Shown one piece after another: positions 477 through 15,290 of a stretch of 24,000 nt of DNA. Positions within the stretch are counted from its first letter, which is position 1; each line of letters opens with the position of its first letter. The position numbers and the translations under genes are program-made. The notes under the pieces are model-generated. The model was not told where the DNA came from and did no database searches. It worked only from the letters and a program-made list of their open reading frames with translations. The stretch comes from Geoglobus acetivorans (GTDB lineage Archaea > Halobacteriota > Archaeoglobi > Archaeoglobales > Archaeoglobaceae), in assembly GCF_039641995.1 (NCBI RefSeq), contig NZ_CP087714.1, positions 1,654,328 through 1,678,327 of the forward strand. The letters are read 5' to 3'.

Positions 477-501
477 TATATGGGTTGGAGGCTGAAATAG
501 A

Positions 502-825: not shown

Positions 826-828
826 TGC

Positions 829-1155: not shown

Positions 1156-1173
1156 ACTCAAATAACATTCCAA

Positions 1174-1185
1174 TTTTTTAAAGTC
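1174..1185. promoter_or_regulatory. TATA-like element TTTTTTAAAGTC, probably bidirectional
   Basis: 19 nt separate the motif from the ATG at 1205 (+). On the other strand TTTAAAAAA lies 18 nt upstream of the ATG at 1155 (-). Confidence 0.55.
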
Positions 1186-1204
1186 TTTTTTCTTTGGAGG
1201 AAAC

Positions 1205-2563: not shown

Positions 2564-2567
2564 GTAG

Positions 2568-2936
2568 ATGGTTCTGGTGTATGTTGAGGGGAGGTCCATC
2601 AAGGCAACTGCAGGAGCTGCGATAACCGCAGGACAGCTCGTCGAACTCACTGGCGACGAGACGGTTTCTCCGGCTTCGGCCGGATCGACCAAGGTACTCG
2701 GAGTTGCGATGAAGGATGCTGCTGCGGGTGAGCTTGTTACTGTCATCACTGAGGGCGTTGTTGAGGTGACCGCTGCAGGAGCAATAACAGCAGGTGCGAG
2801 AGTTCAGGCCGCTGCAAACGGTCAGGTGGATGCGTGGAGTGCGGCTGCGGCTGGAGATTCAGCGAAGATCGTCGGACTCGCAATCACCTCTGCGGCTGCG
2901 GCAGGAGATAGCATAAAAATAAAGCTGGAGGTGTGA
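2568..2936 (+). CDS. DUF2190-like small Ala/Gly-rich head (decoration) protein
   Basis: 122 aa with repeated AGAAITAGxxV / GVAxxDAAAGELVTV / AAAAGDSIKIKL pattern, typical of DUF2190 proteins encoded between protease and MCP in HK97-like phages. Confidence 0.7.
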   Translation: MVLVYVEGRSIKATAGAAITAGQLVELTGDETVSPASAGSTKVLGVAMKDAAAGELVTVITEGVVEVTAAGAITAGARVQAAANGQVDAWSAAAAGDSAKIVGLAITSAAAAGDSIKIKLEV

Positions 2937-2940
2937 TGAG

Positions 2941-3738
2941 ATGACGGTCATAACTTCGGACGTTCTGCCGGCCGAGCTTCTGCAGGCGATAAGCGATGTC
3001 GTTGTTGTGCAGGCAAGAGCGACGAGAGTTGGAAGGAACCTTGTGCAGACCGAGAAAGTCGACAGGGGAACGCAGGTCTACAAGTACAGGAAGTTCACGG
3101 GATTCAGCGATGTCCAGGAGATCCCCGAGGGTGCGGAGTTCCCGCTCGAGGGCGTGACATACACTGAAGCAACCGCATCGATCAAGAAGATCGGTAAGGG
3201 GTTCTTCATAACCAGGGAGGAGTACCTCGGAAACAAGATTCACAGCATCGGACAGCTTGCGAGAGATGCTGCAGAGGTCGTTGCCCTCAAGGAGGACGAA
3301 ATGATCATCAACGAGTTCGTGAACAACGCAGGCAAGACCCAGGCTGCGGCTGCAGCATGGAGTTCTACTGGTAACCCCTACGACGATGTTTCTGCCGCAC
3401 TTGCCAAGCTTGAAGAGGTCAACGTGAAGCCCGACATGCTCGTGCTGCACCCGTACGAGGTGGCGGACCTCAGAAAAATCGATGCCAACGCCAAAATGTC
3501 CTACGCTCAGCTCATCGAGGGTCTTGGGCTTAAGGTCATCGCAACTCCAAAGCTTTCGACCGGCACAGGTCTGCTCCTCGACAGCAAGAGAGCCGGGGTT
3601 CTTGTGATTGCCGAGGACATAACGATTGAGGGGCCAGAATACAGGCAGGAGAACCAGAGCTACCTCGTCAACGTCTTCGAGAGAATCGTTCCCGTGGTCA
3701 GGTATCCGGATGCAGTCTGCAAGCTGACGGGAATCTAA
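2941..3738 (+). CDS. major capsid protein, HK97 fold
   Basis: 265 aa in the canonical position after protease/scaffold and DUF2190. Sequence character is typical of small HK97-like MCPs (…ASIKKIGKGFFITREE…, …LVLHPYEVADLRK…). Confidence 0.8.
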   Translation: MTVITSDVLPAELLQAISDVVVVQARATRVGRNLVQTEKVDRGTQVYKYRKFTGFSDVQEIPEGAEFPLEGVTYTEATASIKKIGKGFFITREEYLGNKIHSIGQLARDAAEVVALKEDEMIINEFVNNAGKTQAAAAAWSSTGNPYDDVSAALAKLEEVNVKPDMLVLHPYEVADLRKIDANAKMSYAQLIEGLGLKVIATPKLSTGTGLLLDSKRAGVLVIAEDITIEGPEYRQENQSYLVNVFERIVPVVRYPDAVCKLTGI

Positions 3739-3766
3739 CCCCATTATTTTTTATCAGGGGTCAGAA

Positions 3767-4000
3767 ATGACAGCGTTTGACAGAGATGCTGTGCAGTTAC
3801 TCGGAGAGCTTAACGGTAAAGTGGACAGAATACTGTGCGAACTCCAGAAAATCAGCGACAAGCAGAAAGATCACGAAGATAGGCTCGATAACCACGACAG
3901 GGTGATCGAGCGGCACAGCACATATTTCAGAGTCGTAGGCTTCGTCGTGTCGATCATCGTTGCTGCTCTCGGAGCGATAGTCTCATTCTTCAAATCCTGA
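3767..4000 (+). CDS. small coiled-coil protein with C-terminal TM anchor (XhlA-like architecture)
   Basis: 77 aa with an N-terminal charged helical region and the C-terminal hydrophobic segment VVGFVVSIIVAALGAIVSFF. Confidence 0.5.
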   Translation: MTAFDRDAVQLLGELNGKVDRILCELQKISDKQKDHEDRLDNHDRVIERHSTYFRVVGFVVSIIVAALGAIVSFFKS

Positions 4001-4011
4001 TTTTTAAAGTC
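4001..4011 (+). promoter_or_regulatory. viral promoter motif TTTTTAAAGTC
   Basis: Same motif as at 1174, 8967 and 12386. 19 nt to the ATG at 4031. Flanking T5/T6 runs could also terminate the upstream operon. Confidence 0.55.
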
Positions 4012-4030
4012 CGTTTTTTCAGCCCTTGAC

Positions 4031-4237
4031 ATGAAAGTCAGAAACGTGTCGAACTCTGTTGTGTATGTAGCCGACAAGACTATCGAGCCAGGCAAGACTG
4101 CAGAGCTTAGCAAGGAAGAAATGGCAATGTCCGGTGTCAAGGCCCTCATCGAGAGTGGAGAGCTTGAGATCGTTGAAGAGAAAACTGAAGAGAAGAAGAG
4201 GGAGAAGAAAGCACAGAAAAAGAAGAGTGAGCCATGA
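4031..4237 (+). CDS. small protein with Lys/Glu-rich tail (68 aa), unknown function
   Basis: ORF is preceded by the promoter motif and overlaps the next gene by ATGA. Weak similarity to the 56-aa ORF at 9500-9670. Confidence 0.55.
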   Translation: MKVRNVSNSVVYVADKTIEPGKTAELSKEEMAMSGVKALIESGELEIVEEKTEEKKREKKAQKKKSEP

Positions 4238-4614
4238 TCACGGTTGCCGAGGTCAGAACCCTGCTCGGAGATGCTTACTCGACCAAACCTGACGACCCAA
4301 CAATACAGAACTTCATCGATCGAAGAAAAGAGGAGTTACAGGACCTGATAGGAACAGATCCAGCTTCTGCATCTTACCAGAGCCTTCTGAAGAGGTGGCT
4401 GCTCAACAAAGTCTGCTGCGATGTTCTTGCAAATGATCTGCTCGGAGTGGACTCAGCAGATGTTCTCGAATACAGCATAGGTGATCTCAAGGAAAGCAAG
4501 AGCCAGAATGTAAAGCTGAAGCTCGCATGGTTTGAAACTTTCAAGGAATCTGCAGAACTTGCATTGAACACTTACTTTCTCAAAACACGAAGTTACAAAG
4601 CGGTCAAACTGTAG
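4234..4614 (+). CDS. head-tail adaptor / connector protein (gp6/gp15-like)
   Basis: 126 aa. The N-terminus ITVAEVRTLLGD…DDPTIQNFI resembles the gp6-like head-tail connector family. Position after the MCP block fits. Confidence 0.55.
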   Translation: MITVAEVRTLLGDAYSTKPDDPTIQNFIDRRKEELQDLIGTDPASASYQSLLKRWLLNKVCCDVLANDLLGVDSADVLEYSIGDLKESKSQNVKLKLAWFETFKESAELALNTYFLKTRSYKAVKL

Positions 4615-4759
4615 AAAGACATAAGTTATCATATCTACAGAAATCCCTGCGTGGACAGGGGAAGAAAGCTGATACGGCAACTGAAACACCTTATTGAAGA
4701 CCATTTCCCCGAGCTTGAGGTCGAGTATTCGAGAGATTCTATCCTGATAAGGGTCAAAA

Positions 4760-5251
4760 ATGGCGACTCAGGAAGAGGTTCTGCAGGCTATTGTTGAGAA
4801 CAATGGGGCGGTATCGTTCAAGCAGCTCAAAGAGAGGTTCGGGATAGGCAAGTCTGGCTCTTCTTGGCTTCCTCAGCGTTTGAGAAGTCTTGAAAACAAA
4901 AAGCTGATCTACAGACTGAGAATAGGGAATGAGACTTTCTTCATTGCAGATCCGGATCTGCTCGAATTTGAATCCCGTGGAAGGCCTGCAGGGTCGATCA
5001 GGATCAATGCGTGCATGGAGCGCAAACTCTTGAAGGTTCTCAGAGAGAGAAAGATACTGACGAAGTGGCAGCTGAGAGTGGCCCTCGGATGGGATGATAA
5101 GACTTTCAGCAAGTACCTCAAATCTCTTCTCGAAAAAAACATGGTCATCGAATGGCACACGGGGACGGTAACGCTCTATTTCACACCTGACACGCTGAAT
5201 GACATAATCAACCTGTACTACGAAAAGCTCTACAGTAATTTTCAATGCTGA
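4760..5251 (+). CDS. tandem winged-helix (wHTH) DNA-binding protein
   Basis: Two MarR-like wHTH-looking units (EEVLQAIVENNGAVSFKQLKERFGI…LRSLENKKLIYR and ERKLLKVLRERKILTKWQLRVALGWDDKTFSKYLKSLLEKNMV). Non-structural gene interrupting the connector module. Confidence 0.6.
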   Translation: MATQEEVLQAIVENNGAVSFKQLKERFGIGKSGSSWLPQRLRSLENKKLIYRLRIGNETFFIADPDLLEFESRGRPAGSIRINACMERKLLKVLRERKILTKWQLRVALGWDDKTFSKYLKSLLEKNMVIEWHTGTVTLYFTPDTLNDIINLYYEKLYSNFQC

Positions 5252-5254
5252 CAT

Positions 5255-5440
5255 CAGCATTAAACTGAGTCTTTTAGACAGCCTAAAACTCAGCTAAACT
5301 TGACCGTTTTGTGAACTACTCCGCCCTTACGGACGGAGCTTCCCGCTTCATCGAGAGAACTTGCCCCTCGATCACCTTCCGATATGGAATCACGAGGGAT
5401 AGAGACTCTCTCTCCACGGGCGTTCGGGACCGTCCCAGCC
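5255..5440 (-). ncRNA. candidate TnpB guide RNA (omega-RNA / reRNA) scaffold overlapping the tnpB 3' end
   Basis: On the - strand: GGGAC-G-GTCCC (5426-5436); ATCGAG…CTCGAT (5350-5372); an 8-bp stem with GUAA tetraloop and one U-G wobble, CTCCGTCC-GTAA-GGGCGGAG (5319-5338), spanning the last tnpB codons; and the extended hairpin CTGAGTTTTAG-GCTGT-CTAAAAGACTCAG (5265-5293). The exact ends and the guide are not determinable by eye. Confidence 0.35.
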
Positions 5441-6530
5441 CCACATCCAGTATGTTCAGGGAGGCGTTGTAATCTCTGTCAGCCTCCCATCCACAATTAG
5501 GACAGGCGAACGATCTATCTTTCAGGGATATGTTTTTAACAATGTAGCCACAGTTGGCACATCTTTTTGACGTATTTGTAGGATTAACTCTCACCACTCG
5601 CCTACCAGCTCTTTCAGCCTTGTAGACGAGCAGTGTATGGAATTTAGTCCATGCGGAATCGTGAATGTGCCTGTTCAGTGTTGGAGAGTTTCCATTTTCA
5701 ACCAAATCTTTCACATTCAGATCTTCAACGCAGATTATGTCATAGTTGTTGACATAATAACGAGACAACTTGTGCAAGAAATCCAGCCGCTGGTTGTTCA
5801 GCTTCTCGTAGAGTTTTGCCAGCTTGAGTCTGGCTTTCTCTCGCCTCTTCGACCCCTTCTGCTTTCTCGACAACTCTTTTTGAACCCTCTTTATCTTCTC
5901 AAGAGTTTTGTCAATGAATTTCGGATTCTCGAAAGCTATACCATCTGAATCTACGCAGAAGTGATTCACTCCCATGTCTAAACCAACTACTCTTCCCGTT
6001 TTTGGCAGTGATTTCGATTCTACTTCTGTTTGAACTATGGCGAACCACTTTTCGGTTTTAGTTTTCTTGACGATTACACCCTTGATTCTACCTTCAATCG
6101 GACGATGAAGCTTTATCGGAATTTCACCAATCTTGGATAGAACAAGCTTCTTTCTCTCAAAGTCAATCTTGAAACCTGACTGGTTGAAGTTTAGGGTTTT
6201 GAAAGAATTGGGAGAAGTCTTATAGCGAAGCCACCCAACTTTCTTCCCCTTCTTTCTCAGCTCGTTTAACGCTTTGATGTTTGACCAGAGCTGATAATTC
6301 ACCATCTGCAAAACTTTTGAGTAAACGTTCTTTAGCTCTGGTTTTTCTTGCTTAAGCCTCACGATAAGGGCTTGGGTATCTTTCCAACATATCTTTCTAC
6401 CCTCTTTTCTTGCCTTGTTTACTTCTTCAAGCAGCTTATTGTATAACCAGCGACATATCTCAAGCTGTTCATTTAGTTTTGCTTCAGATGTCTTCAAAGG
6501 ATAGATGCGGAATTTGTAGCTAATCAGCAT
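5316..6530 (-). CDS. tnpB: TnpB (IS200/IS605-family OrfB) RNA-guided RuvC nuclease, apparently intact
   Basis: 404 aa. N-terminus YKFRIYP, RuvC-I GLDMGV, RuvC-II ICVEDLNV, zinc finger CANCGY…CPNCGW, RuvC-III ADRDYNASLNI. No tnpA nearby. Confidence 0.9.
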   Translation of the reverse strand: MLISYKFRIYPLKTSEAKLNEQLEICRWLYNKLLEEVNKARKEGRKICWKDTQALIVRLKQEKPELKNVYSKVLQMVNYQLWSNIKALNELRKKGKKVGWLRYKTSPNSFKTLNFNQSGFKIDFERKKLVLSKIGEIPIKLHRPIEGRIKGVIVKKTKTEKWFAIVQTEVESKSLPKTGRVVGLDMGVNHFCVDSDGIAFENPKFIDKTLEKIKRVQKELSRKQKGSKRREKARLKLAKLYEKLNNQRLDFLHKLSRYYVNNYDIICVEDLNVKDLVENGNSPTLNRHIHDSAWTKFHTLLVYKAERAGRRVVRVNPTNTSKRCANCGYIVKNISLKDRSFACPNCGWEADRDYNASLNILDVGLGRSRTPVERESLSLVIPYRKVIEGQVLSMKREAPSVRAE

Positions 6531-6546
6531 CTTTTACACCAAAAAA

Positions 6547-6807
6547 TCATAAATTGTACTTTCTCTTGAACTTCTGAGCTCTCAGCGGAGCCATGTGTAT
6601 CATATCATCCAATCTGCCATAAATGTAGGACTCAACAGACTCAGTGATAACCTCTCCGATAAATCCATCTAATTTCTCCTCATCATAGCCTACCCACTTC
6701 CCATATTCTCTCAAGAACTCAACAAACCTCTTAGGCAGGGGTATTGACACCCTGACGAACTCCTCCCCCTCAATTATCACAGTCTGCTCCTCTTTCATCT
6801 CAATCAC
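6547..6807 (-). CDS. 86-aa cassette protein, possibly ribbon-helix-helix-like (copy 1)
   Basis: FVRVSIPLPKRFVEFLREYGKWVG looks like an RHH beta-strand plus helix. 85/86 aa are identical to 11674-11934. Its stop is 16 nt upstream of the tnpB ATG on the same strand, in an operon arrangement. Confidence 0.6.
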   Translation of the reverse strand: MIEMKEEQTVIIEGEEFVRVSIPLPKRFVEFLREYGKWVGYDEEKLDGFIGEVITESVESYIYGRLDDMIHMAPLRAQKFKRKYNL

Positions 6808-6818
6808 CTCCGAAAATT

Positions 6819-7013
6819 TTAGGAAAAAGCCTCGAGGACAGTTTGTCTTATTACAACCCTCTCCATTCCACCCTCAAAAACCAGCCAGCCCTTCTTAACC
6901 GGGAAGCTCTTAGAGAAGTCAAGTCGGGTCATTTTTGTTCCGCAAAGTGGACAAAGACCGCCGTTAACTCCCCAACCTTCATATCCGCATTTTGGACACA
7001 CCAACTCGGACAT
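6819..7013 (-). CDS. small Zn-ribbon protein (copy 1)
   Basis: CPKCG…x11…CPLCG zinc ribbon followed by a conserved C-terminal half (DFSKSFPVKKGWLVFEGGMERVVIRQTVLEAFS). I place the start at the ATG (complement of 7011-7013), which is preceded by GAGGTG; the track begins at a GTG at 7022. Confidence 0.6.
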   Translation of the reverse strand: MSELVCPKCGYEGWGVNGGLCPLCGTKMTRLDFSKSFPVKKGWLVFEGGMERVVIRQTVLEAFS

Positions 7014-7034
7014 TTTGGACACCTCTACTTTGTA

Positions 7035-7084
7035 GCTACATTGTAATTACATCAAAAGTTATTTAAACTTTTCGCTACATTGTA
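7035..7084. promoter_or_regulatory. divergent promoter of cassette 1 with two 11-nt direct repeats (putative operators) flanking a TATA box
   Basis: GCTACATTGTA at 7035-7045 and 7074-7084 (39 nt start to start) flank TTATTTAAAC (7059-7068). The palindromes GTAGCTAC and TGTAATTACA are also present. Confidence 0.5.
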
Positions 7085-7090
7085 GATACA

Positions 7091-7234
7091 ATGAAGCCCG
7101 CAAAAATAACTGTAGAAGGGTATGAAGTAATTGAGAAGGTCGTAAAAGATGCTGGGAATTCAGGTAGAGTCTATGTTCCAAAGTCTTGGGTTGGAAAGAG
7201 GGTTAAAATAATCTTGCTGGAGCCAAATGAATAA
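7091..7234 (+). CDS. DUF2080-like (AbrB/SpoVT-type) transposase-associated small protein (copy 1), 47 aa
   Basis: Below the ORF-track size cutoff; read directly from the sequence as MKPAKITVEGYEVIEKVVKDAGNSGRVYVPKSWVGKRVKIILLEPNE. The GNSGRVYVPKxWxGKxVK motif matches my memory of the archaeal DUF2080 family that accompanies tnpB. Confidence 0.6.
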   Translation: MKPAKITVEGYEVIEKVVKDAGNSGRVYVPKSWVGKRVKIILLEPNE

Positions 7235-7257
7235 AAGTGGAATCATCTGGAATTTTA

Positions 7258-7269
7258 TTTAATAAAGTC
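7258..7269 (+). promoter_or_regulatory. viral promoter motif variant TTTAATAAAGTC
   Basis: 18 nt to the ATG at 7288. Aligns with the motif at 12386-12396 at the right edge of the other cassette. Confidence 0.5.
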
Positions 7270-7287
7270 TGCTTCTGCCTTGCGATT

Positions 7288-7461
7288 ATGATTCGGTTGA
7301 ACGAGAATCAGCCACTCTGGATGCCTCCTGGGAGTGTCAGAGCGATAATTGCGCTTGCAATCGTCATTGGATACATTGCGATCAACAGAACCGTGGACAA
7401 GGAACTTGTCATGTTCGTACTCGGGTTCTACTTTGGCTCGAAGATGGGGGAGAGACGATGA
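7288..7461 (+). CDS. small 2-TM membrane protein (holin-like size)
   Basis: MIRLNENQ…AIIALAIVIGYIAI…LVMFVLGFYFG. The start is moved from the track's GTG at 7237 to the ATG at 7288 because the promoter motif lies in between. Confidence 0.55.
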   Translation: MIRLNENQPLWMPPGSVRAIIALAIVIGYIAINRTVDKELVMFVLGFYFGSKMGERR

Positions 7462-7679
7462 TGCTGGACGTTTTTGACGACAGGCTCAGCCTGATGCACA
7501 TCGTAGTAGGAGCGCTGAGTTTCTTCTACCAGGTGTTCTTCGTTGTCTTTGTGTTCTATGAGGTCGTTGAGCATATCTATCTCGCTGGAAGGGAGAAGGA
7601 AGCGAATTTCCTTGGGGATTTTGTCGAGTTTCTGTTTGGTCTCGGAGCGGCTGCCCTTGCGTGGGGGATGATGGCGTGA
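7458..7679 (+). CDS. small 2-TM membrane protein
   Basis: 73 aa with hydrophobic stretches IVVGALSFFYQVFFVVFVFY and FVEFLFGLGAAALAWGMM. ATGA overlap with the upstream gene. Confidence 0.55.
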   Translation: MMLDVFDDRLSLMHIVVGALSFFYQVFFVVFVFYEVVEHIYLAGREKEANFLGDFVEFLFGLGAAALAWGMMA

Positions 7680-8224
7680 GCTGGTGGGACTGGCTGTTCG
7701 GATGGAGGGCGAGAAAGAGGATAGATCCCCCGAAGAAGGAACTGGACAGGAGAGATATAACTGTCTACATCGATCCGGCCGTTGATGAGAGTTTGGTCAG
7801 GTCTGCACTCAAGCTTATACCGGGGTACTGGAAATTCAGCGTGGCGGAGTGGGACGAATCACAGCTCACATCTCTTGGAGGGGAATGGGCAGGCTTCCTG
7901 CTCCCAACTCAGGACAACACGGTGGTAGTTTTCGATGGCAAATCGAGAGGGGTCAGATACGCTGGGGGGACTGTCGGGAAGAGGGTCGGAGTGGCCGTTT
8001 TTGGCCGGGAAAGTGAGCTTATTATTGCGTTGAGGATCTGGCATGAGCTTCTGCACACGGAGAAACTCGATGCTGACGGGATGATGACCAACAGAGGGTT
8101 CCGTGACTGGCTTCCCGGGGAAGTCAGAGCAGCCTTCGAGGAAAAAGCCAGACCCCACGACTGGTTCTGGCAGATCGGGTACTACACATACCTGACCGAA
8201 ACTCTGGTCGGGAGGAGAAGATGA
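7661..8224 (+). CDS. HExxH-motif protein (putative metallopeptidase)
   Basis: The motif WHELLHTEKLD is an HExxH. The start is either the GTG at 7661 or the GTG at 7676 (GTGA overlap). The stop overlaps the next ATG (ATGA at 8221). Confidence 0.45.
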   Translation: MGDDGVSWWDWLFGWRARKRIDPPKKELDRRDITVYIDPAVDESLVRSALKLIPGYWKFSVAEWDESQLTSLGGEWAGFLLPTQDNTVVVFDGKSRGVRYAGGTVGKRVGVAVFGRESELIIALRIWHELLHTEKLDADGMMTNRGFRDWLPGEVRAAFEEKARPHDWFWQIGYYTYLTETLVGRRR

Positions 8225-8589
8225 ACTTCGACAAGATCTTAGAAAAGCACGGAGTGAGTGTAACACTGAGATCAGCAACGAAAACAGTGGTTGATGACGT
8301 CTATGGGGTGGAGAAAACAGCATACACAGACACGACAATCAAAGCAATTTTCTCAATGAAAACTGAAAGAGATGAGCTTAAGGTTCAGGGATACACGGGT
8401 GACGGAAAGACGATATCAGGCACCTCAGAAGTTGATTCTGTCTGCTATGTCTCACCGACATCTCAGGCAAAGCAGTTTGATAAGATTGTTTATGACAACA
8501 CGACTTATGAAGTTGTCAGAGTTGATAAGGCGATTTTCCAGGGGAATGTGATCTATCTGAAACTGTTTCTGAAGAGAATAGAGGAATAG
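8221..8589 (+). CDS. head-closure / head-tail joining protein (gp7/gp16-like)
   Basis: 122 aa beta-rich protein ending …YEVVRVDKAIFQGNVIYLKLFLKR, in the pattern of head-tail joining proteins. Directly precedes the gp10-like gene. Confidence 0.5.
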   Translation: MNFDKILEKHGVSVTLRSATKTVVDDVYGVEKTAYTDTTIKAIFSMKTERDELKVQGYTGDGKTISGTSEVDSVCYVSPTSQAKQFDKIVYDNTTYEVVRVDKAIFQGNVIYLKLFLKRIEE

Positions 8590-8591
8590 AA

Positions 8592-8915
8592 ATGAGCATC
8601 AGAATAACAGTCAAGGGATTGAATAAAACAAAGAAAGAGCTTGAGAAGCTCGATCTCTCAGAGATCGATAAGAAATTACACGAAGCAGTTCTCGAACTTG
8701 AGGGTGAGATAAAACAGACTGCTCCTGTGAGAACTGGAAGATACAGAGCTGCATGGGCATCAAGCAGGCTTGGAAAGCTGAAGTACGTGATCAGCAACAA
8801 TGTTGAGTACGCCAAATACTTGATTTATGGCACATCGAGGATGCCCGTGAAGCATGATGTTAGAGGAATAATCGAGAGGTGGAAGGGGCGATTGAAAAGA
8901 AAATTGAAACTTTAA
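8592..8915 (+). CDS. HK97 gp10-like neck/tail-component protein
   Basis: 107 aa with …EIKQTAPVRTGRYRAAW…NNVEYAKYLIYGT, resembling the HK97-gp10 family signature (P-V-x-T-G-x-L/Y-R…Y-A-x-Y-x-E/Y-G). Confidence 0.65.
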   Translation: MSIRITVKGLNKTKKELEKLDLSEIDKKLHEAVLELEGEIKQTAPVRTGRYRAAWASSRLGKLKYVISNNVEYAKYLIYGTSRMPVKHDVRGIIERWKGRLKRKLKL

Positions 8916-8966
8916 AGTGTTCAAATTCTCAAAATTTTATACACTAAAGTTAACAGAATTGTTCTC

Positions 8967-8978
8967 TTTTTTAAAGTC
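8967..8978 (+). promoter_or_regulatory. viral promoter motif TTTTTTAAAGTC
   Basis: Lies in an AT-rich stretch after the stop at 8915. 46 nt to the ATG at 9025, with a CCGATTG direct repeat in between. Confidence 0.45.
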
Positions 8979-9024
8979 CGATTGTAAGCTCCATTTTGGG
9001 AAAACCGATTGGCAAGGGTGCGAT

Positions 9025-9495
9025 ATGTTCAGGGAGCTTGTCAATGAGATAATCACGCTGTTGAGGAACAACATACCCGATCCGAACACAGCAAGGGCTA
9101 ACGCTGGCAAGAACTGGATCTATCCGGATTTTCCCCATGAGAAGGCAACGATGCCGAGGATCAGCGTTGTTTACATCGGACATTCAGAGCCTGATTTCTA
9201 TGGTGTCAATGGGGGGACGGCCCTGCTCTACCCGCTGAGATACGAGATCTCGGTCTGGGTGAGGAGAGGAGAGACATTCACGGTGGGCAACGAGGAACTT
9301 GGAGGAGGAGCCTTGCTCGATTACCTTGCGGATCAGGTGATCAATGTCATAGAGTCCAATGCGTTCTCAATGACGAATGTCGTCGTTGCAAAGTGCGTTG
9401 GGGGAGGTTCCATAGTAATAGAAGAACAGAACACCGGGATTCTCAGGAAACCGCTGGAATTCACGTTCTATTACTTGAAACAGTCAGGAGTGTGA
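9025..9495 (+). CDS. tail completion / terminator-like protein (DUF3168-like)
   Basis: Begins MFRELVNEIITLLRNNIPD…WIYPDFPHEKATMPRISVVYIG, the pattern typical of gp17/DUF3168 tail-completion proteins. I prefer the ATG at 9025 over the track's GTG at 8917, which would read through an AT-rich promoter-like region. Confidence 0.5.
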   Translation: MFRELVNEIITLLRNNIPDPNTARANAGKNWIYPDFPHEKATMPRISVVYIGHSEPDFYGVNGGTALLYPLRYEISVWVRRGETFTVGNEELGGGALLDYLADQVINVIESNAFSMTNVVVAKCVGGGSIVIEEQNTGILRKPLEFTFYYLKQSGV

Positions 9496-9499
9496 TGGT

Positions 9500-9670
9500 A
9501 TGAAGGTCAGGCTGAAGAGGGGAGAGAAGCTCCACGTTGGGAGCTTCGTGTTCGAGGCGGGAGAGGTGTATGACGTCGAACCCACGACCGACATCTCCCG
9601 CCTGGTGAAGAGAGGAGTGTTGGAGGTCGTGAAAGATGAGATGAAGAGACAGAAGGAGGTGAGTGAATAA
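9500..9670 (+). CDS. small protein (56 aa), unannotated in the ORF track
   Basis: Read directly from the sequence: MKVRLKRGEKLHVGSFVFEAGEVYDVEPTTDISRLVKRGVLEVVKDEMKRQKEVSE. TAATG overlap with the next gene. Confidence 0.5.
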   Translation: MKVRLKRGEKLHVGSFVFEAGEVYDVEPTTDISRLVKRGVLEVVKDEMKRQKEVSE

Positions 9671-10596
9671 TGCCGATAGGGGCGACAGGCTATCTGCTCT
9701 GGAGAGATGAAAGCACATACGGAACAGATCCAGGAACTGGAAGCAAAACGGCAGATGCAGCAAGCGTGGAGCTGAACTGGAACAGAAACCTTGAGAGAGT
9801 CAAAGCTCTCTGGGGGGTCAGGAACGTTCCCAAGGTTTACAGTCAGGAGAAGCACGTTGAGGGAAGGATCGCACTCAACACAAGCGACTGGAAGATGCTT
9901 AAACATGTTCTCGGCAGTCTGACAGAGAACGTAACTTCAGCAACTCAGGCTCCATACTATCATGATTTTGAGGAAGCTGAGACGCTTCCGAGCTTCACGC
10001 TGGAGAGGCAGTGGGGATCAAACACAGCTTACGTTGCAGTCGGCTGTAAAGTAAACTCAGCGAGAATCAGAGGGGAAGTTGGAAAAGCTGTCGAATTTGA
10101 GCTTGAGATCCTCGGCAAGAGCATGTCGAAGATAACATCAGGACTTGCAATTCCAAGCTATTCTCCAACGCTACCATTCAGAATGACGAACCTCGCAACT
10201 GCAACCTTCGGAGGCTCAGATGTAAGCGGACAGATAAAGAGCTTTGAGATCAACATCAACAACAACCTTGAGCCAGATTATGGCAGTGATGGAACTCCGA
10301 GGGCGATTGACGAGGGACTGAGAGAAGTGACTGGAACCCTGACATTCAAATTCGACTATACAATAGCCGACTACGTGCTGAACGAGTCTGAGGGAGACAT
10401 AGTCATCAAGCTGATCAGGGGAACGAACGACGAGGTTGAGTTCACGATAGAGAATGCGACATTTGAGGCTCTGAATGATGTAACCGAGGCTGAAGCACAG
10501 AAAGAGCTTGAGCTTGCTTTCATGAGTCAGGCCGATCCAACGAACAAGAACTGCATCAAGGTGAGAGTTACATCTGCAAACGCCACGTACTACTGA
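9670..10596 (+). CDS. major tail (tube) protein
   Basis: 308 aa beta-rich protein between the tail-completion and chaperone/tape-measure genes. The segment …SFEININNNLEP…REVTGTLTF… resembles phage tail-tube families. No sheath gene is present. Confidence 0.6.
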   Translation: MPIGATGYLLWRDESTYGTDPGTGSKTADAASVELNWNRNLERVKALWGVRNVPKVYSQEKHVEGRIALNTSDWKMLKHVLGSLTENVTSATQAPYYHDFEEAETLPSFTLERQWGSNTAYVAVGCKVNSARIRGEVGKAVEFELEILGKSMSKITSGLAIPSYSPTLPFRMTNLATATFGGSDVSGQIKSFEININNNLEPDYGSDGTPRAIDEGLREVTGTLTFKFDYTIADYVLNESEGDIVIKLIRGTNDEVEFTIENATFEALNDVTEAEAQKELELAFMSQADPTNKNCIKVRVTSANATYY

Positions 10597-10605
10597 CAGA
10601 GATAA

Positions 10606-11658
10606 TTAATTTTTAGTGATGGGGTTTATTATTTGGATGAAACGTAATACTTCTTTTTTTCCACCAAGCACCGTTAATACATGCTCTGGTTTTCTATTTC
10701 TTCTCGTATAAGTCTTGATTGACACTTTAAAGCCTAATTTTTCCAGTTGAGCTTTAATAAGTTTTAGCAGCTTTAAGTTAGTATTGTACATTTGAATGTT
10801 AGAATGGGCACGATGCCCTTCAGATTCATAAAAGCCTCGAATGAATTCTTTGCGAAAATCATCGTTTATGAGGTACTCAGTTTCGATTGTCTTTAAGTCT
10901 AAACTCTTATACCACTCGTAAAATTGTTTTGACCGAGCCCTTACATAATAGATCTTCTTCCAATTAGGTTTTTTAGGCTTAATTGTCTTCATATATGGTT
11001 TAAGACCAATTCTTCTCAAATTAACTACAAATTCATCTGCAAATTGTTTATCAATCACTTTTAATTGGATAAACCTATCTCCGTACTTCTTCGTGTGTCC
11101 CACATAACCATCACCGAATATGACTCCTAAAATATATGCTAACTCTTTAGAAGGTTTAAGATTTACATCTGCAACTCCACCAAGCTCACGAAGGGGGATG
11201 TGATATTTTTTAAGGTATTGTCTAATTGTTGTAGCACTACACCTGAATATTTTGGCACAATCTCTAACTGACAACTCTAAGTCCCAGTAGGCAGTAAATA
11301 GCAGATCTTGGGAGATATTAACACTGGCACACTTCTTTGAACAGAATTTTCCTTCTCCCCGCTTAACCCTATATGGAAAAATGTAGAATTCTTTACCACA
11401 TCCTTGGCAGATTCTTTTGATCTTGACACTTGTTTTTCTATCATAGTCCAACCGACACTCGTGTGAACAGAATTTTGCTTTATCTCTCCTGCTTTGCCAG
11501 ACTTCAAACTCTTTACCACAGTTCTGACAGATTTTATTAACTCTCTTACGTCTAAATTCGTAAAAACATCGTTTTGAACAAAATCTTCTCTTCTCAATTT
11601 TAGATGGTGGCACTTGAAACTCCTTCCTACAATTCAAGCATTTGACAGTTACAGGCAT
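10606..11658 (-). CDS. LAGLIDADG homing endonuclease with three N-terminal FCS/TRASH-type zinc fingers and an HTH
   Basis: Three repeats of C-x2-C-x16-18-(F)C-S-x2-C (CLNCRKEF…FCSKRC, CQNCGKEF…FCSHEC, CQGCGKEF…FCSKKC). HTH LSVRDCAKIFRCSATTIRQYLKKY. Two LAGLIDADG motifs (LAYILGVIFGDGYVG and EFIRGFYESEGH). Strongly AT-rich. Confidence 0.8.
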   Translation of the reverse strand: MPVTVKCLNCRKEFQVPPSKIEKRRFCSKRCFYEFRRKRVNKICQNCGKEFEVWQSRRDKAKFCSHECRLDYDRKTSVKIKRICQGCGKEFYIFPYRVKRGEGKFCSKKCASVNISQDLLFTAYWDLELSVRDCAKIFRCSATTIRQYLKKYHIPLRELGGVADVNLKPSKELAYILGVIFGDGYVGHTKKYGDRFIQLKVIDKQFADEFVVNLRRIGLKPYMKTIKPKKPNWKKIYYVRARSKQFYEWYKSLDLKTIETEYLINDDFRKEFIRGFYESEGHRAHSNIQMYNTNLKLLKLIKAQLEKLGFKVSIKTYTRRNRKPEHVLTVLGGKKEVLRFIQIINPITKN

Positions 11659-11673
11659 TCTATCACCAAAAAA

Positions 11674-11934
11674 TCATAAATTGTACTTTCTCTTGAACTT
11701 CTGAGCTCTCAGCGGAGCCATGTGTATCATATCATCCAATCTGCCATAAATGTAGGACTCAACAGACTCAGTGATAACCTCTCCGATAAATCCATCTAAT
11801 TTCTCCTCATCATAGCCTACCCACTTCCCATATTCTCTCAAGAACTCAACAAACCTCTTAGGCAGGGGTATTGACACCCTGACGAACTCCTCCCCCTCAA
11901 TTATCACAGTCTGCTCCTCTTCCATCTCAATCAC
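11674..11934 (-). CDS. 86-aa cassette protein, RHH-like (copy 2)
   Basis: Differs from copy 1 by a single residue (K5E). Its stop is 15 nt upstream of the LAGLIDADG ATG. Confidence 0.6.
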   Translation of the reverse strand: MIEMEEEQTVIIEGEEFVRVSIPLPKRFVEFLREYGKWVGYDEEKLDGFIGEVITESVESYIYGRLDDMIHMAPLRAQKFKRKYNL

Positions 11935-11945
11935 CTCCGAAAATT

Positions 11946-12134
11946 TTAGGAAAAAGCTTCGAGGACAGTCTGCCTTATCACAACCCTCTCCATTCCACCC
12001 TCAAAAACCAGCCAGCCCTTCTTAACCGGGAAGCTCTTAGAGAAGTCCACTTTATGCAGTTCTCCACCACACAGCGGGCACAGACCATTGCTCCCAGAAC
12101 CTTCATACCCACATCGGACACATTTCACGGGCAT
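11946..12134 (-). CDS. small Zn-ribbon protein (copy 2)
   Basis: MPVKCVRCGYEGSGSNGLCPLCGGELHKV followed by a C-terminal half identical to copy 1. ATG (complement of 12132-12134) is preceded by GAGGTG. Confidence 0.6.
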   Translation of the reverse strand: MPVKCVRCGYEGSGSNGLCPLCGGELHKVDFSKSFPVKKGWLVFEGGMERVVIRQTVLEAFS

Positions 12135-12160
12135 TTTTAACACCTCTTAGTTAGATTTTA

Positions 12161-12210
12161 GCTATAATATATTTAGAACATAAACTATTTAAACTTTTCG
12201 CTATAATATA
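12161..12210. promoter_or_regulatory. divergent promoter of cassette 2 with two 11-nt direct repeats flanking a TATA box
   Basis: GCTATAATATA at 12161-12171 and 12200-12210 (39 nt start to start) flank CTATTTAAAC. Same geometry as copy 1 but a different repeat sequence. Confidence 0.5.
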
Positions 12211-12215
12211 GCTAT

Positions 12216-12362
12216 ATGGCAGATCCGATTGAGGTAAAAGTTAAGGGATATGAAGTAATCGAGAAGGTCGTAAAACGGAGTGGGGATTCAGGTAGAGTCT
12301 ATGTTCCAAAGTCTTGGGTTGGGAAGAAAGTTAAGATAATACTATTAGAGCCAAATGAGTAA
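12216..12362 (+). CDS. DUF2080-like (AbrB/SpoVT-type) small protein (copy 2), 48 aa
   Basis: Read directly from the sequence: MADPIEVKVKGYEVIEKVVKRSGDSGRVYVPKSWVGKKVKIILLEPNE. Confidence 0.6.
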   Translation: MADPIEVKVKGYEVIEKVVKRSGDSGRVYVPKSWVGKKVKIILLEPNE

Positions 12363-12385
12363 GGTAAATCATCTGAAGTTTTTGA

Positions 12386-12396
12386 TTTTTAAAGTC
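12386..12396 (+). promoter_or_regulatory. viral promoter motif TTTTTAAAGTC
   Basis: 19 nt to the ATG at 12416. Confidence 0.55.
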
Positions 12397-12415
12397 TATT
12401 TGAAATCAAGCAGAT

Positions 12416-12751
12416 ATGGTTGAGGAACTGAGCTTTGAGGATCTTAAGGGGCAACCTAAAGAGTTCATCATAAGGGGTAAACGAGTGAGAATTCCACCGT
12501 TAGAGGTTAGAGATTTCAATCTGTTTCTACGAATGTCCGAACAAGACCCGAACAAGGTTGCGGAAGTAATGAAAGAGATTTTCCTCAAAACAATGCAGAA
12601 GATCTATCCCGATAAGAGCAGAGAGGAAATTTTGAGCCTGCCAGCCAGTATCTTGCTTGAATTCATGGTTTACATTCTAAAAGCGAACGGCTTGGAGGTT
12701 GATGAAGAGGTTTTTCAGAAAGTTTTACAGAGCTTACAGAGCGAGACCTAG
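12416..12751 (+). CDS. tail assembly chaperone (G-like)
   Basis: 111 aa acidic protein immediately upstream of the tape measure gene, in the conserved position for the chaperone. Confidence 0.6.
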   Translation: MVEELSFEDLKGQPKEFIIRGKRVRIPPLEVRDFNLFLRMSEQDPNKVAEVMKEIFLKTMQKIYPDKSREEILSLPASILLEFMVYILKANGLEVDEEVFQKVLQSLQSET

Positions 12752-12786
12752 TGAAACTTATAGTAGTCTGCTTATCAGAGCTCAAA

Positions 12787-12930
12787 ATGGATCTTGAAAC
12801 AGTACTTTCAATGAAGATCCCACAGTTCTTGACATTGATGGCAGCATATAGTGAGGTACAAGAAGATATACAGAGAGAAGTTGAAAAAGAACGGAGGAAG
12901 AGAGAGTTCTTTAGCAGGATGGGGGTATAA
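12787..12930 (+). CDS. T-like chaperone extension: a separate 47-aa ORF or the -1 frameshift product of 12416-12751
   Basis: The -1 frame is open from 12706 to 12930 and overlaps the end of the G-like ORF. It ends in a TAATG overlap with the tape measure start. It contains an internal ATG at 12787. Confidence 0.4.
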   Translation: MDLETVLSMKIPQFLTLMAAYSEVQEDIQREVEKERRKREFFSRMGV

Positions 12931-15290
12931 TGGAGAAAATTGAGATTGTTATCCAAGCAATAGACAAAGCAACCAAACCGCTTAAAGAAATTCAAAACCG
13001 AATTGGTAGTTTAGGTCAAACTATTGGCTCAGCAGGTGCGGCATTTACAAGGGCAGGCATGATGATGTCTGCTGCGGTGCTCCCAATAGTTGGAGCATTC
13101 GGTTTGGCTATTAGAACAGGAGTTGAGTTTGAGCAACAAATGAAAAATGTCCAATCTGTTGCTCAAGCATCTCAAGAAGATTTCATCAAACTTTCAGAAT
13201 TTGCACGAAAAATGGGAGAACAAACAATTTTCTCGGCTTCGGAAGCAGCCCAAGCAATGTATTACCTTGCTTCAGCAGGTTATGATGCTTCCAGAATTAT
13301 GGAAAGCTTGGAAGGTATACTAGATCTTGCAGCAGCAACTCAAACAGATCTGGCTTTCGCAACTGAAACAGTTCTTTCAGTCTTAAATTCATTTGGCATG
13401 GAAGCTAAAGAAGCAACAAAAATCTCTGACAAGTTTGCTGCAACGATTTCAGGATCACAAGCAACCATGGAAAAATTGGCATATTCGATGAGATATGTTG
13501 CTCCTCTTTTTAAGAGCTTAGGATATACTATAGATGAATTACTCGTAGCTCTTGGAGGACTTTATAATGCAGGTTATAGAGGAGAGCAAGCTGGAACAAT
13601 CTTGAGAGGCGCTTTATCGAGGCTTATTGACCCTACTAAAGAAGTTTTAGAGACAATCAGTAGGTTGGGTTTGGAGATATATGAGCTTACTCCAGCAGCA
13701 TTGGAAATAAAAAGACAGTTCGACAAACAGAGTGAAGCTCTGAGAGAGCTTAGAGAAGAATATGAAAAGACAATAAACGCAATGTCTGAGATGAACGATG
13801 AAATGAGCAAACTTGCCGACAAGGAAGCAAGACTGAGACTTGAGATAAAGAAAATAAGATATAAAGCAGCCAAAGAGGGAAGAGAATTAACAGAAGATGA
13901 GAAAAAGCAGATTAAAGAGCTTGAACTTGCAATAGATGAGTTAAGCATCAGGCAAGATGAGTTGAGACTAAAATATAAAGAACTATCAAGAACTAAAGAG
14001 GAACAGATTGCCCAGATTAAATCTTTAGAATCTGCAGTCGAAGCTCTTGCTGAGAAATTTGCGAAGAGCCCTAAGAAACTCAAGCAATTCAAAATATTGA
14101 TGGAAGAATTCAGGAAAACATCAATGACAGCAGCAGATGCTGTAAAGATCTTTGGACAAGAAGCAGGACCAGGAATGATGGCTTTGATTAGCCAATATGG
14201 GACTGAGGCTCTTGATATGCTTGAAGAGAAAATCAAGAATGCAAGTGGTGCTGCTAAAGAAATGGCTGAAATTCAGCTAAAATCAACAGCTGGAGCTTTG
14301 AAGGAGCTAAAATCAAAAATAGAAGACATTCAAATTACAATTTTTGAAGAACTCAAAGACGAGATAGATGCACTCATCAATACGATTAAAGAAAATATGC
14401 CTGCTATTAAAGAATTTACTAAAGAATTTACAGAAAATATGGTGCCTGCTGCAAAAACATTCGGAGAAATACTCTTAGATTTAATGAAAACGTTCAACAA
14501 GTTACCGGCTCCAGTAAAAGAGTCAGTAGCTAGGTTTTCTGCTTTAGCTGTCGTTTTCATGGCTGTTGGCGGACCGATGTTGATGGTTTTAGGAGGAGCT
14601 ATGCAAGTAGTAGGAGCTATGATCTCAATTGGCTCAGCAATAAGTGGCTTGATTGGTGGGGGTGGAATACTAGCCACTCTTGTTGCTTTATTAGGGCCAG
14701 TGGGAGTTGCATTACTAGCTCTTGCGGCTGCAGCAGCTGTACTCTATGCTGCTTGGGTAAATAATTGGTTTGGAATCAGAGACAAGACTAAAGAACTGGT
14801 AGAAAAACTCTCTAAATCCATATCCGGCTTCTGGAAGTGGTTTGTGAATGCATGGAGTGGAGGATGGAAACGGATTAAAGAGGGCAGCATCAACACCTTA
14901 GCAACTCTTGGCAAAATATTCGGTAATGCACTAAGTTTGATCTATAATAATATCGTGGCAAAGTTTGTTGAAGGCTTCATCAATGCGATTAATACTGTTA
15001 TTGGTAGTGTTAACAAGTTTATAGCTTTTATGAGTACTGTCCCTTATATTGGCGAAAAACTCAAGGACGTATCAATCCCAACCCTTAAGATCCCAAACAT
15101 CAGGATAGACCTCGGACCGGCGATAGAGGCAAGGATTCTCGGACTCAAGGGGACCGAGATAAACAACAGCGTTACAGTGAATGTGAACGTTCAGACGGAT
15201 GCAGATCCGGATGTTATTGCTGATAGAGTCGGCAGAGTTGTTCTGAGAAAACTTGCAGATGCATACACTGTCAGGAGGGGGATGATTTGA
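12930..15290 (+). CDS. tail tape measure protein
   Basis: 786 aa. N-terminal TP901-type TMP core (…FEQQMKNVQSVAQAS…SASEAAQAMYYLASAGYDA…LDLAAATQTDL…), long coiled coils and a Gly-rich hydrophobic segment (GGPMLMVLGGAMQVVGAMISIGSAISGLIGGGGILATL…). At ~0.15 nm per residue the length implies a tail of roughly 115-120 nm. Confidence 0.85.
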   Translation: MEKIEIVIQAIDKATKPLKEIQNRIGSLGQTIGSAGAAFTRAGMMMSAAVLPIVGAFGLAIRTGVEFEQQMKNVQSVAQASQEDFIKLSEFARKMGEQTIFSASEAAQAMYYLASAGYDASRIMESLEGILDLAAATQTDLAFATETVLSVLNSFGMEAKEATKISDKFAATISGSQATMEKLAYSMRYVAPLFKSLGYTIDELLVALGGLYNAGYRGEQAGTILRGALSRLIDPTKEVLETISRLGLEIYELTPAALEIKRQFDKQSEALRELREEYEKTINAMSEMNDEMSKLADKEARLRLEIKKIRYKAAKEGRELTEDEKKQIKELELAIDELSIRQDELRLKYKELSRTKEEQIAQIKSLESAVEALAEKFAKSPKKLKQFKILMEEFRKTSMTAADAVKIFGQEAGPGMMALISQYGTEALDMLEEKIKNASGAAKEMAEIQLKSTAGALKELKSKIEDIQITIFEELKDEIDALINTIKENMPAIKEFTKEFTENMVPAAKTFGEILLDLMKTFNKLPAPVKESVARFSALAVVFMAVGGPMLMVLGGAMQVVGAMISIGSAISGLIGGGGILATLVALLGPVGVALLALAAAAAVLYAAWVNNWFGIRDKTKELVEKLSKSISGFWKWFVNAWSGGWKRIKEGSINTLATLGKIFGNALSLIYNNIVAKFVEGFINAINTVIGSVNKFIAFMSTVPYIGEKLKDVSIPTLKIPNIRIDLGPAIEARILGLKGTEINNSVTVNVNVQTDADPDVIADRVGRVVLRKLADAYTVRRGMI

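Follow-up and report, generated by a model that had tools for sequence, protein, structure and literature searches.

We analysed a stretch of 24,000 nucleotides (nt) of the Geoglobus acetivorans genome (hereafter the window), which comes from a siphovirus-like provirus with its structural genes on the + strand. The window contains two cassettes, at about 5311-7261 and 10606-12388, which have in common a DUF2080 gene, a promoter with paired predicted operators, a zinc (Zn)-ribbon gene and a gene for a protein of 83 or 86 amino acids (aa), referred to here as the leader or 86-aa gene. The gene behind the leader differs: it encodes a TnpB nuclease in cassette 1 and a LAGLIDADG endonuclease in cassette 2. 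In the following lines, ORF stands for open reading frame and BRE for the B recognition element of an archaeal promoter.

Cassette 1
5291-5310, - strand: predicted omega-RNA guide AAAACGGTCAAGTTTAGCTG, the first bases past the right-end boundary
5311-5442, - strand: omega-RNA scaffold and IS605 right end, overlapping the tnpB 3' end
5316-6530, - strand: TnpB, 404 aa
6531-6546, - strand: swap junction, TTTTTTGGTG followed by TAAAAG, with GGTG at 6537-6540
6547-6807, - strand: leader protein, 83 aa from ATG 6798 (the NCBI annotation) or 86 aa from GTG 6807
6819-7022, - strand: ORF of the Zn-ribbon protein, 64 aa, start probably ATG 7013 after GAGGTG; first gene of the operon
7035-7084: promoter/operator region with two GCTACATTGTA operators (7035-7045 and 7074-7084)
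7059-7074, - strand: BRE/TATA CGAAAAGTTTAAATAA, bracketed by the operators
7091-7234, + strand: divergent DUF2080 protein, 47 aa
7258-7270, + strand: late-promoter-like motif TTTAATAAAGTCT at the cassette border, 17 nt upstream of ATG 7288

Cassette 2
10606-11658, - strand: free-standing LAGLIDADG endonuclease, 350 aa
11659-11673, - strand: swap junction, TTTTTTGGTG followed by ATAGA
11674-11925, - strand: leader protein, 83 aa (86-aa ORF 11674-11934), one residue different from the cassette 1 copy
11946-12143, - strand: ORF of the Zn-ribbon protein, 62 aa, start ATG 12134
12161-12212: promoter/operator region with two GCTATAATATA operators (12161-12171 and 12200-12212)
12185-12200: BRE/TATA, bracketed by the operators
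12216-12362, + strand: DUF2080 protein, 48 aa, second allele
12385-12397, + strand: late-promoter-like motif ATTTTTAAAGTCT at the cassette border, 18 nt upstream of ATG 12416

The two cassettes share a direct repeat of 300 nt at 99% identity, with flanking segments at 76-82%. Taken segment by segment, there is one mismatch in the 282 nt of 6537-6818, and identity is 95% over the 3' half of the Zn-ribbon gene (6819-6921), with a sharp drop at about 6921. Beyond this point, it is 57% in the 5' half of the Zn-ribbon gene, 69% in the intergenic region and 76% in the DUF2080 gene, while within the nuclease genes it is 31%. On the nuclease side, the shared DNA stops at a GGTG Shine-Dalgarno sequence, 6 nt (cassette 1) or 5 nt (cassette 2) ahead of the nuclease ATG, and the entire spacer from the leader stop codon to this ATG is 16 and 15 nt long, respectively. 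A preliminary description of this DNA, made without database searches, had proposed that one module occurs twice between viral structural genes, with TnpB or a LAGLIDADG enzyme in the nuclease slot, a divergent promoter, a spacer of 15-16 nt and near-identity ending 5-6 nt before the nuclease ATG, so that the nuclease would be swapped cargo behind conserved expression signals. These proposals are borne out by the identity profile, the gene content and domain searches, the neighbourhood survey, the putative BRE/TATA elements and paired repeats between the divergent genes, and the structural-gene assignments around each cassette. A search of the cassettes against Rfam gave no family match. Assembly duplication, which the same description had raised as a possible flaw, was rejected: half of the repeat has diverged by 24-43%, and both copies, with all of the cassette genes, are present in two independent G. 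acetivorans assemblies.

The TnpB of cassette 1, as judged from its sequence, appears to be the intact RNA-guided nuclease that it was first taken for. It matches NCBIfam guided_TnpB (1e-92, 311 bits against a cut-off of 100) and the Pfam families OrfB_IS605, Cas12f1-like_TNB and HTH_OrfB, aligns at full length with ISDra2 TnpB (8bf8/8exa; 2e-49, residues 5-361), and has the RuvC D/E/D motifs (GLDMG, VEDLN, ADRDYN) along with a CxxC...CxxC zinc finger. When its omega-RNA was aligned with those of 13 relatives, RNAalifold returned 38 base pairs, 14 of them with compensatory changes, and the fold of the single sequence has z = -2.7. The relatives are conserved up to ...GTAGTTCAC (GTTCAC, window 5311) and unrelated beyond it. 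With compensatory pairs conserved and such a sharp end at 5311, the omega-RNA scaffold is therefore intact. No second match to the predicted guide was found in the window or in the other loci retrieved, and a scan of viral contigs with guide 14-mers gave chance matches only.

Relatives of this TnpB were found at 63 loci in representative genomes with up to 87% identity, and the closest of them belong to canonical tnpA-tnpB IS605 elements. In these closest relatives (L012, L013, L026, L065, L017, L032, L019 and L020), tnpA precedes tnpB, ends in ...LDVLKKYVESQG-stop and leaves 5-8 nt to the start codon of tnpB; in the window, the 86-aa gene occupies its place. Nucleotide homology between the IS605 relatives and the window is limited to 6540-5311. 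The junction reads ...CAGGGTGAAAACGATG in an IS605 relative, TGATTTTTTGGTGTAAAAGATG in cassette 1 and TGATTTTTTGGTGATAGAATG in cassette 2. The GGTG at 6537-6540 is the last block common to cassette 2 and the first common to the IS605 tnpA-tnpB junction; as the leader homology and the IS605 homology both include it, GGTG is their overlap. Such an overlap reads as the signature of a microhomology-mediated swap, by which the 86-aa gene would have come to stand exactly in the former place of tnpA. No Y1 transposase TnpA was found in cassette 1. Outside their left ends, the relatives have TTTAA(C/T), likely the target-adjacent motif (TAM), followed by a subterminal hairpin, GTTGCTGCTAAGTCCCCTTGCGAAAGCGAGGGGA. 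On these comparisons, it is well supported that a canonical IS605 element, having lost its left end and tnpA, was the source of tnpB, the omega-RNA and the right end. One close tnpB relative is itself split by an insertion of about 1.8 kb (L065 2877-5823).

The module might also have been the ordinary left end of a known insertion sequence (IS), the other flaw that the preliminary description had raised. This was rejected, since no 86-aa, Zn-ribbon or DUF2080 gene lies near tnpB at any of the 63 relative loci. The name that NCBIfam gives to DUF2080, 'transposase-associated', and one DUF2080 homologue beside an IS6-type DDE transposase would speak for an ordinary IS end, but together with the divergence over half of the repeat and the two assemblies, the 63 loci leave next to no probability to either an IS end or an assembly duplication.

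The enzyme of cassette 2 matches Pfam LAGLIDADG_3 (2.9e-17, 63 bits against a cut-off of 22.5) and I-DmoI (1.2e-6), and both LAGLIDADG motifs are present, GVIFGDGY (GDG) and GFYESEGH (SEG). Three N-terminal Cys4 fingers are followed by a helix-turn-helix (HTH) and an I-DmoI-like core with the two motifs. It had been described as a LAGLIDADG enzyme with three FCS/TRASH fingers; the first part of that label holds, and the second was not confirmed, as the Pfam match to zf-FCS (18.1 bits) falls under its cut-off of 22.4. By eye, the finger module consists of three CxxC-x14-18-FCSxxC repeats, and it is common to phage 'HNH endonuclease' PHROGs (3e-15). At 20 viral loci with relatives of this LAGLIDADG enzyme, none had the 86-aa gene beside it. 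The association is therefore a property of the leader family, not of this nuclease family.

The 86-aa protein has no match in Pfam, NCBIfam or PHROG. Its AlphaFold2 model (predicted local distance difference test score, 79) consists of a short strand and three helices, and a Foldseek search with this model returned no match with E < 0.6, with Arc at rank 12 (E = 3.5). The ribbon-helix-helix (RHH)-like label first given to it was thus not confirmed. The family is small, with 4 close clusters among 5.8 billion non-redundant proteins and 11 representatives in a profile search of 1.84 billion. In one member, P0009, a Zn-ribbon is fused to the 86-aa domain, a fusion which supports the two proteins working together. 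No viral loci were found for the distant members P0012 and P0013, and a metagenome scan with a narrow alignment added one new locus, L102. The neighbourhoods of the 86-aa gene are as follows, with SBH6 being the provirus of G. acetivorans SBH6 (CP009552 / IMGVR_UViG_2634166507).

Cassette 1: divergent DUF2080; first gene Zn-ribbon; after the 86-aa gene, TnpB of 404 aa
Cassette 2: divergent DUF2080; first gene Zn-ribbon; after the 86-aa gene, LAGLIDADG enzyme of 350 aa
L007-9: divergent RHH; first gene of 66 aa; then a TnpB-like protein of 336 aa, 31% identical to the window TnpB (C-terminal half), D/E/D present
L102: divergent DUF2080, 91% identical to that of cassette 1; first gene of 42 aa; then the same TnpB-like gene as in L007-9
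L010/11: another first gene; after the 86-aa gene and a 16-nt spacer, an HTH-LAGLIDADG_2 protein (Pfam 4.7e-13, PHROG 4e-17)
L076: divergent MazE-like; no first gene; then an intein-like protein of 372 aa with GYWISEGN and ISGDGY, on weak evidence
SBH6 provirus: divergent MazE-like; first gene Zn-ribbon; after the 86-aa gene, a winged-helix protein and then terminase genes
L006: divergent RHH; first gene Zn-ribbon; after the 86-aa gene, a probable winged-helix protein
L077: after the 86-aa gene, a 55-aa orphan
L078-80: divergent MazE-like; no first gene; nothing adjacent after the 86-aa gene

A nuclease stands directly behind the 86-aa gene in 6 of the 9 readable loci (L006, whose downstream gene is readable for 40 aa only, is excluded from this count), and these nucleases come from at least five lineages, two of TnpB and three of LAGLIDADG type. 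The survey that the preliminary description had proposed as a check on its reading thus did not refute it. That description had, however, treated the Zn-ribbon, 86-aa and DUF2080 trio as the conserved unit, and here the survey disagrees: the first gene varies, and, on these neighbourhoods, the conserved unit is the 86-aa gene together with a small divergent gene, predicted to encode a repressor, of varying family (DUF2080, MazE-like or RHH). Zn-ribbon family matches are weak, with CxxC...CxxC visible in the cassette 1 protein; the cassette 2 protein is 95% identical to that of L006 and 91% identical to that of the SBH6 provirus.

Several of these loci have features of their own. In L076, the region 2606-3724 combines a Hint region with a LAGLIDADG domain, with matches to intein-bearing PHROGs (3.7e-11) and a V-ATPase intein in the PDB (0.013). 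The TnpB-like gene of L102 is followed at 2470-2600 by a GC-rich, probably structured region that L007 lacks and that may be the omega-RNA of this gene. In L007, the TnpB-like gene runs at 2164-2276 into an inverted, truncated cassette start (MLKVVQT..., with cassette 2-type operators and an L075-type DUF2080); one cassette being broken against another in this way, recombination among cassettes is therefore frequent.

The survey also bears on a reading in which the 86-aa gene is an ordinary late-operon gene whose 3' flank is favoured by unrelated selfish nucleases, the leader having no functional link to them and cassettes 1 and 2 being partial duplicates of the start of such an operon that travelled with the nuclease. 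A packaging operon (winged-helix protein, then terminase) without a nuclease does begin with the Zn-ribbon and 86-aa genes in the SBH6 provirus and L006, and free-standing homing endonuclease genes typically lie between conserved phage genes (PMC13565253). Moreover, in most members of the family the C-terminal K(F/Y)NL-stop encodes TTTAAT (L001 6250-6261, L006, L010), which contains the TTTAA TAM of the IS605 relatives; its equivalence to the TTTAA(C/T) outside the left ends of L012, L013, L026 and L065 may explain landing behind the 86-aa gene. Against this stands the manner in which the TnpB gene is joined to the leader, as it has neither left end nor tnpA and is fused at the Shine-Dalgarno sequence, and simple transposition was therefore not its route of arrival. 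Whole cassettes, with repressor gene and operators, lie at ectopic sites far from terminase genes, and between L007 and L102 the repressor gene has been exchanged while leader and nuclease were retained. Finally, the TnpB guide lies at the outer flank of the cassette, and the unit delimited by TAM and right end is therefore the whole cassette. We regard the late-operon reading as unlikely, though it merits serious attention.

The divergent genes of the window are confidently assigned to DUF2080 (PF09853 / NF033496), with Pfam matches of 1e-9 and 3.5e-8 (38.5 and 33.5 bits against a cut-off of 21.5) and NCBIfam matches of 2e-19 and 4e-19 (69 and 67.8 bits against a cut-off of 22). This part of the initial DUF2080/AbrB-like label stands. 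The AbrB-like part was not supported: Pfam MazE_antitoxin was matched by one copy alone at E = 0.042, an hhalign comparison of DUF2080 with the positionally equivalent MazE-like proteins gave a probability of 0.2%, and neither Foldseek (with the AlphaFold2 model) nor a PDB profile search produced a match. Distant DUF2080 homologues in viral contigs lie in heterogeneous contexts, with no nuclease detected nearby. In L103-L110 (the P0037 contexts), a multi-copy DUF2080 homologue is divergent from an IS6/IS240-type DDE transposase. The DNA-processing enzymes that DUF2080 accompanies are therefore unrelated to one another and not limited to TnpB.

Between the divergent genes, a promoter core, CGAAAnnTTTAAATACTTTA (BRE, then TATA), was predicted in every locus, directed into the operon and flanked by two repeats. 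One of these predicted operators overlaps the BRE and the other lies at the expected transcription start. In the window, the operator 11-mers occur at these four places only, with 0.01 expected by chance. The repeats pair with the divergent genes as follows.

DUF2080 allele ...DAGNSG...: operator GCTACATTGTA (CTACAaTGTAG), in cassette 1 and L102
DUF2080 allele ...SGDSG...: operator GCTATAATATA (CTATAtTATAG), in cassette 2, L075 and the second, truncated cassette of L007
RHH divergent gene: TCTACTA repeats, in L006 and L007
MazE-like divergent gene: GTAAAG repeats, in SBH6 and L076

The repeat type thus tracks the divergent gene and not the Zn-ribbon gene; L006, for instance, has RHH-type operators despite a Zn-ribbon protein that is 95% identical to that of cassette 2. 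Because operator type co-varies with the divergent gene, and because the operators lie at the BRE and the expected transcription start, we read the divergent protein, here DUF2080, as the likely repressor of the nuclease operon. Repressor and operator alleles differ between the two cassettes of the window, with relatives of the cassette 1 type in L102 and of the cassette 2 type in L075 and L007. Two cassette lineages whose leader was homogenised by gene conversion, or which recently exchanged leader and cargo, would fit these alleles better than a simple duplication within the genome.

A repressor-like gene beside a nuclease gene also raises the possibility of an addiction system resembling toxin-antitoxin modules, in which the nuclease would act as a toxin, restrained by DUF2080 and/or the 86-aa protein, and would stabilise the provirus or abort superinfection instead of driving homing. 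The divergent gene is interchangeable with MazE-like and RHH genes, which are classic antitoxin DNA-binding folds, and the antitoxins that have been validated with a nuclease toxin as partner include one with a domain labelled DUF2080 (PMC10440598); the literature places this domain in CalpT as well. At L002 9063-9703 of SBH6, beside the native leader ahead of the terminase genes, a putative toxin-antitoxin pair (DUF4258/DUF2283) has the MazE-like gene at its head. TnpB and LAGLIDADG enzymes are sequence-specific and not general toxins, however, and a single antitoxin is unlikely to neutralise two unrelated nuclease folds. The SBH6 cassette, moreover, has decayed by deletion while the provirus has apparently been kept. 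An addiction role is accordingly one that we consider quite improbable.

The positions of the cassettes were examined against the other genes of the window.

1205-2563, + strand: prohead protease
2941-3738, + strand: HK97-type capsid protein
9670-10596, + strand: tail tube protein
12930-15290, + strand: tape-measure protein
21003-21086, - strand: tRNA gene (55 bits)
22096-23529, + strand: host GAF/PAS histidine kinase (sensor kinase)

Head-closure, gp10-like and distal tail proteins are likewise encoded on the + strand. The tRNA gene and the host kinase likely mark the attachment site and right border of the provirus, and an NYN-domain protein is encoded just within that border (19522-20157). 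Between the tail tube and tape-measure genes, at 12416-12930 on the + strand, lie ORFs of 111 and 59 aa that overlap at 12751. This is the usual place of tail assembly chaperones with a programmed frameshift.

Both cassettes are antisense to the virion genes and sit in intergenic spacers of their module, against what we take to be the TATA element of a late promoter. The motif TTTWWWAAAGTCT occurs five times on the + strand of the window (1174, 7258, 8967, 12385 and 17842) with 0.4 expected, and in three of the five occurrences its end lies 17-19 nt upstream of the ATG of a structural gene, which makes it a candidate late-promoter TATA element with leaderless transcripts. The motif also closes the DUF2080 side in L102 and at two sites in SBH6. 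When the flanks of cassette 1 are joined (5310 to 7262), they read GACCGTTTTATAAAGTCT and restore a perfect late-promoter motif, TTTTATAAAGTCT; on the - strand, TTTAT is followed by the guide sequence. One would expect this geometry if TAM and right end delimited the whole cassette as one unit and if TnpB targeted the uninterrupted promoter of alleles without a cassette.

Related viruses provide comparators for the site of cassette 1. Window positions 1-5400 are collinear with the SBH6 provirus at about 70-95% translated identity, and SBH6 has a remnant of cassette 1 at the orthologous site (L004 10503-10700), in which an internal deletion of 1,822 bp joins window 5252-5392 to 7213 onward over an AATC microhomology. 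What is left comprises the guide, about 80 nt from the 3' end of the omega-RNA scaffold and the final DUF2080 codons. In a third virus, L005, a 163-aa gene leads directly to the promoter motif and the next gene, an empty site with an intact late promoter. Invasion, decay and absence among sister viruses would fit the pattern of selfish homing genes. A second DUF2080 gene in SBH6 (L004 13707-14260), probably left from a further decayed cassette in the tail module, is N-terminally truncated; it adjoins a 135-aa orphan on the opposite strand and is followed by the same motif.

These comparisons also speak to a domesticated viral function, by which the nucleases would serve the virus itself, for instance by degrading host DNA, countering defence, or processing and packaging the genome, at times set by a late-type cassette. 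The cassettes do lie inside the late structural module, and the native leader of SBH6 lies directly upstream of the terminase genes. Close relatives, however, lack the cassette (L005) or have it in degraded form (SBH6), cassette transcription is antisense to the structural genes, and TnpB retains a transposon-type omega-RNA with a flank-derived guide. We find a domesticated function very unlikely.

As such, a conserved leader, gated by a predicted repressor, with an interchangeable nuclease slot, into which TnpB was taken from IS605 without TnpA, is well supported as a structural reading. As to function, we favour selfish, repressor-gated homing or competition cassettes that form a small modular family in hydrothermal-vent archaeal head-tail viruses, and we put the probability of this at roughly 55%. 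The divergent DUF2080 protein would bind two operators around a strong BRE/TATA promoter that drives a tightly coupled operon of a small first gene, the 83/86-aa gene and a site-specific endonuclease, the nuclease slot being filled by recombination at the Shine-Dalgarno GGTG. In the lysogen, the repressor would silence the nuclease. Once repression is lifted, alleles of related viruses that lack the cassette would be cut, by TnpB with its omega-RNA guide beside a TTTAW TAM in the uninterrupted promoter (TTTAW followed by AAAACGGTCAAG...) and by the LAGLIDADG enzyme through protein recognition of its target. Repair of the break would then copy from the genome with the cassette (homing); alternatively, the cut would destroy the competitor genome.

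Several observations weigh against the homing or competition reading. No cassette-free allele matching the 20-nt guide was found, and L005 agrees with the guide at about 15 of 20 bases, with indels needed. The TAM adjoining cassette 1 reads TTTAT and not TTTAA, and neither a left end like that of the relatives nor a left-end hairpin beside DUF2080 was found in the window, where TTTAT or TTTAA alone adjoins the DUF2080-side cassette end. For cassette 2, no transposon-like end was found at the nuclease side, and its site, between the tail-tube gene and the putative chaperone genes, has no comparator, as the tail-tube protein found no relative in viral contigs and the SBH6 provirus has a non-homologous tail module. 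DNA binding by DUF2080 is drawn from co-variation at two loci per allele, and the survey is small, with several of its 9 readable loci on contigs of 1-3 kb. In three of these loci (SBH6, L077 and L078), the 86-aa gene has no nuclease behind it, and the leader can thus occur where no nuclease follows.

Among known systems, cassette 1 is most directly comparable to IS200/IS605 tnpA-tnpB elements of the ISDra2 type. It shares with them a TnpB that is 87% identical to those of canonical elements and matches ISDra2 at full length, a conserved omega-RNA scaffold ending at the right-end boundary, a guide made of flanking DNA and a TTTAW at the opposite border. It differs from them in having neither TnpA nor a left-end hairpin, in the DUF2080, Zn-ribbon and 86-aa genes and predicted repressor-controlled promoter between the TAM side and tnpB, in its place in a virus structural module, and in having a sister cassette with a LAGLIDADG enzyme. 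The cassettes likewise resemble the free-standing homing endonuclease genes of phages (intronless homing) in their intergenic position between conserved virion genes and in their presence, absence and decay across sister genomes. In cassette 2, the core with two motifs is that of I-DmoI-type archaeal LAGLIDADG enzymes, and the N-terminal modular DNA-binding fingers are common to phage HNH homing endonucleases. In contrast to those phage genes, the cassette 2 enzyme is the third gene of an operon with a divergent predicted repressor and paired operators, and its leader is almost base for base that of the TnpB cassette.

Type II toxin-antitoxin and anti-CRISPR/anti-CRISPR-associated (Acr-Aca)-style operons offer a further parallel, with a small antitoxin-type DNA-binding protein (MazE-like, RHH or, here, DUF2080) beside a repeat-bracketed promoter and with modular exchange of the repressor gene. 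The likeness to toxin-antitoxin systems would be one of analogy, in the position of the repressor gene as compared with that of the MazE and RHH antitoxin families. The cassette regulator, in contrast, is divergent and not co-transcribed, and the cargo is a sequence-specific nuclease. IStrons, which combine a group I intron with TnpB, also place TnpB in the classical niche of homing endonucleases (bioRxiv 10.1101/2023.11.20.567912), whereas the cassettes contain no intron, and what links them is a protein-coding leader and a regulatory cassette that they have in common.

TnpB acts as a homing nuclease for its own transposon, and its analogy to homing endonucleases has already been published and argued from bacterial experiments (bioRxiv 10.1101/2023.11.20.567912; review PMC13565253). 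In the literature searched, neither this cassette family nor an exchange between TnpB and a LAGLIDADG enzyme was found to be described. What the window adds is an apparent natural swap, with the same leader and the same four joining bases in front of both TnpB (cassette 1) and a LAGLIDADG enzyme (cassette 2), and the pairing recurs with other lineages of both nucleases. The best-fitting reading of these sequences is that TnpB and the LAGLIDADG enzyme, though unrelated, do the same selfish job, be it homing or inter-virus competition.

A more tentative idea, which we think rather unlikely, is that the 83/86-aa leader, together with the Zn-ribbon protein or another partner, serves as a 'homing adaptor' for any nuclease placed behind it, for instance by protecting the carrier genome, recruiting repair or licensing cleavage. 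If this were true, archaeal viruses would own a plug-and-play chassis that makes a gene drive of an RNA- or protein-guided nuclease, and the cassettes would be a direct natural intermediate for TnpB leaving transposons for other roles.

Cassette 1 in any event presents a concrete case of TnpB and omega-RNA that are uncoupled from TnpA yet intact, under a predicted repressor/operator switch inside a virus. DUF2080, until now a 'transposase-associated' orphan, gains a testable role as an allele-specific, operator-binding repressor. With two orthogonal predicted repressor/operator pairs and with one programmable and one protein-guided nuclease, the two cassettes would offer a compact thermophilic test system for homing and inter-virus competition.

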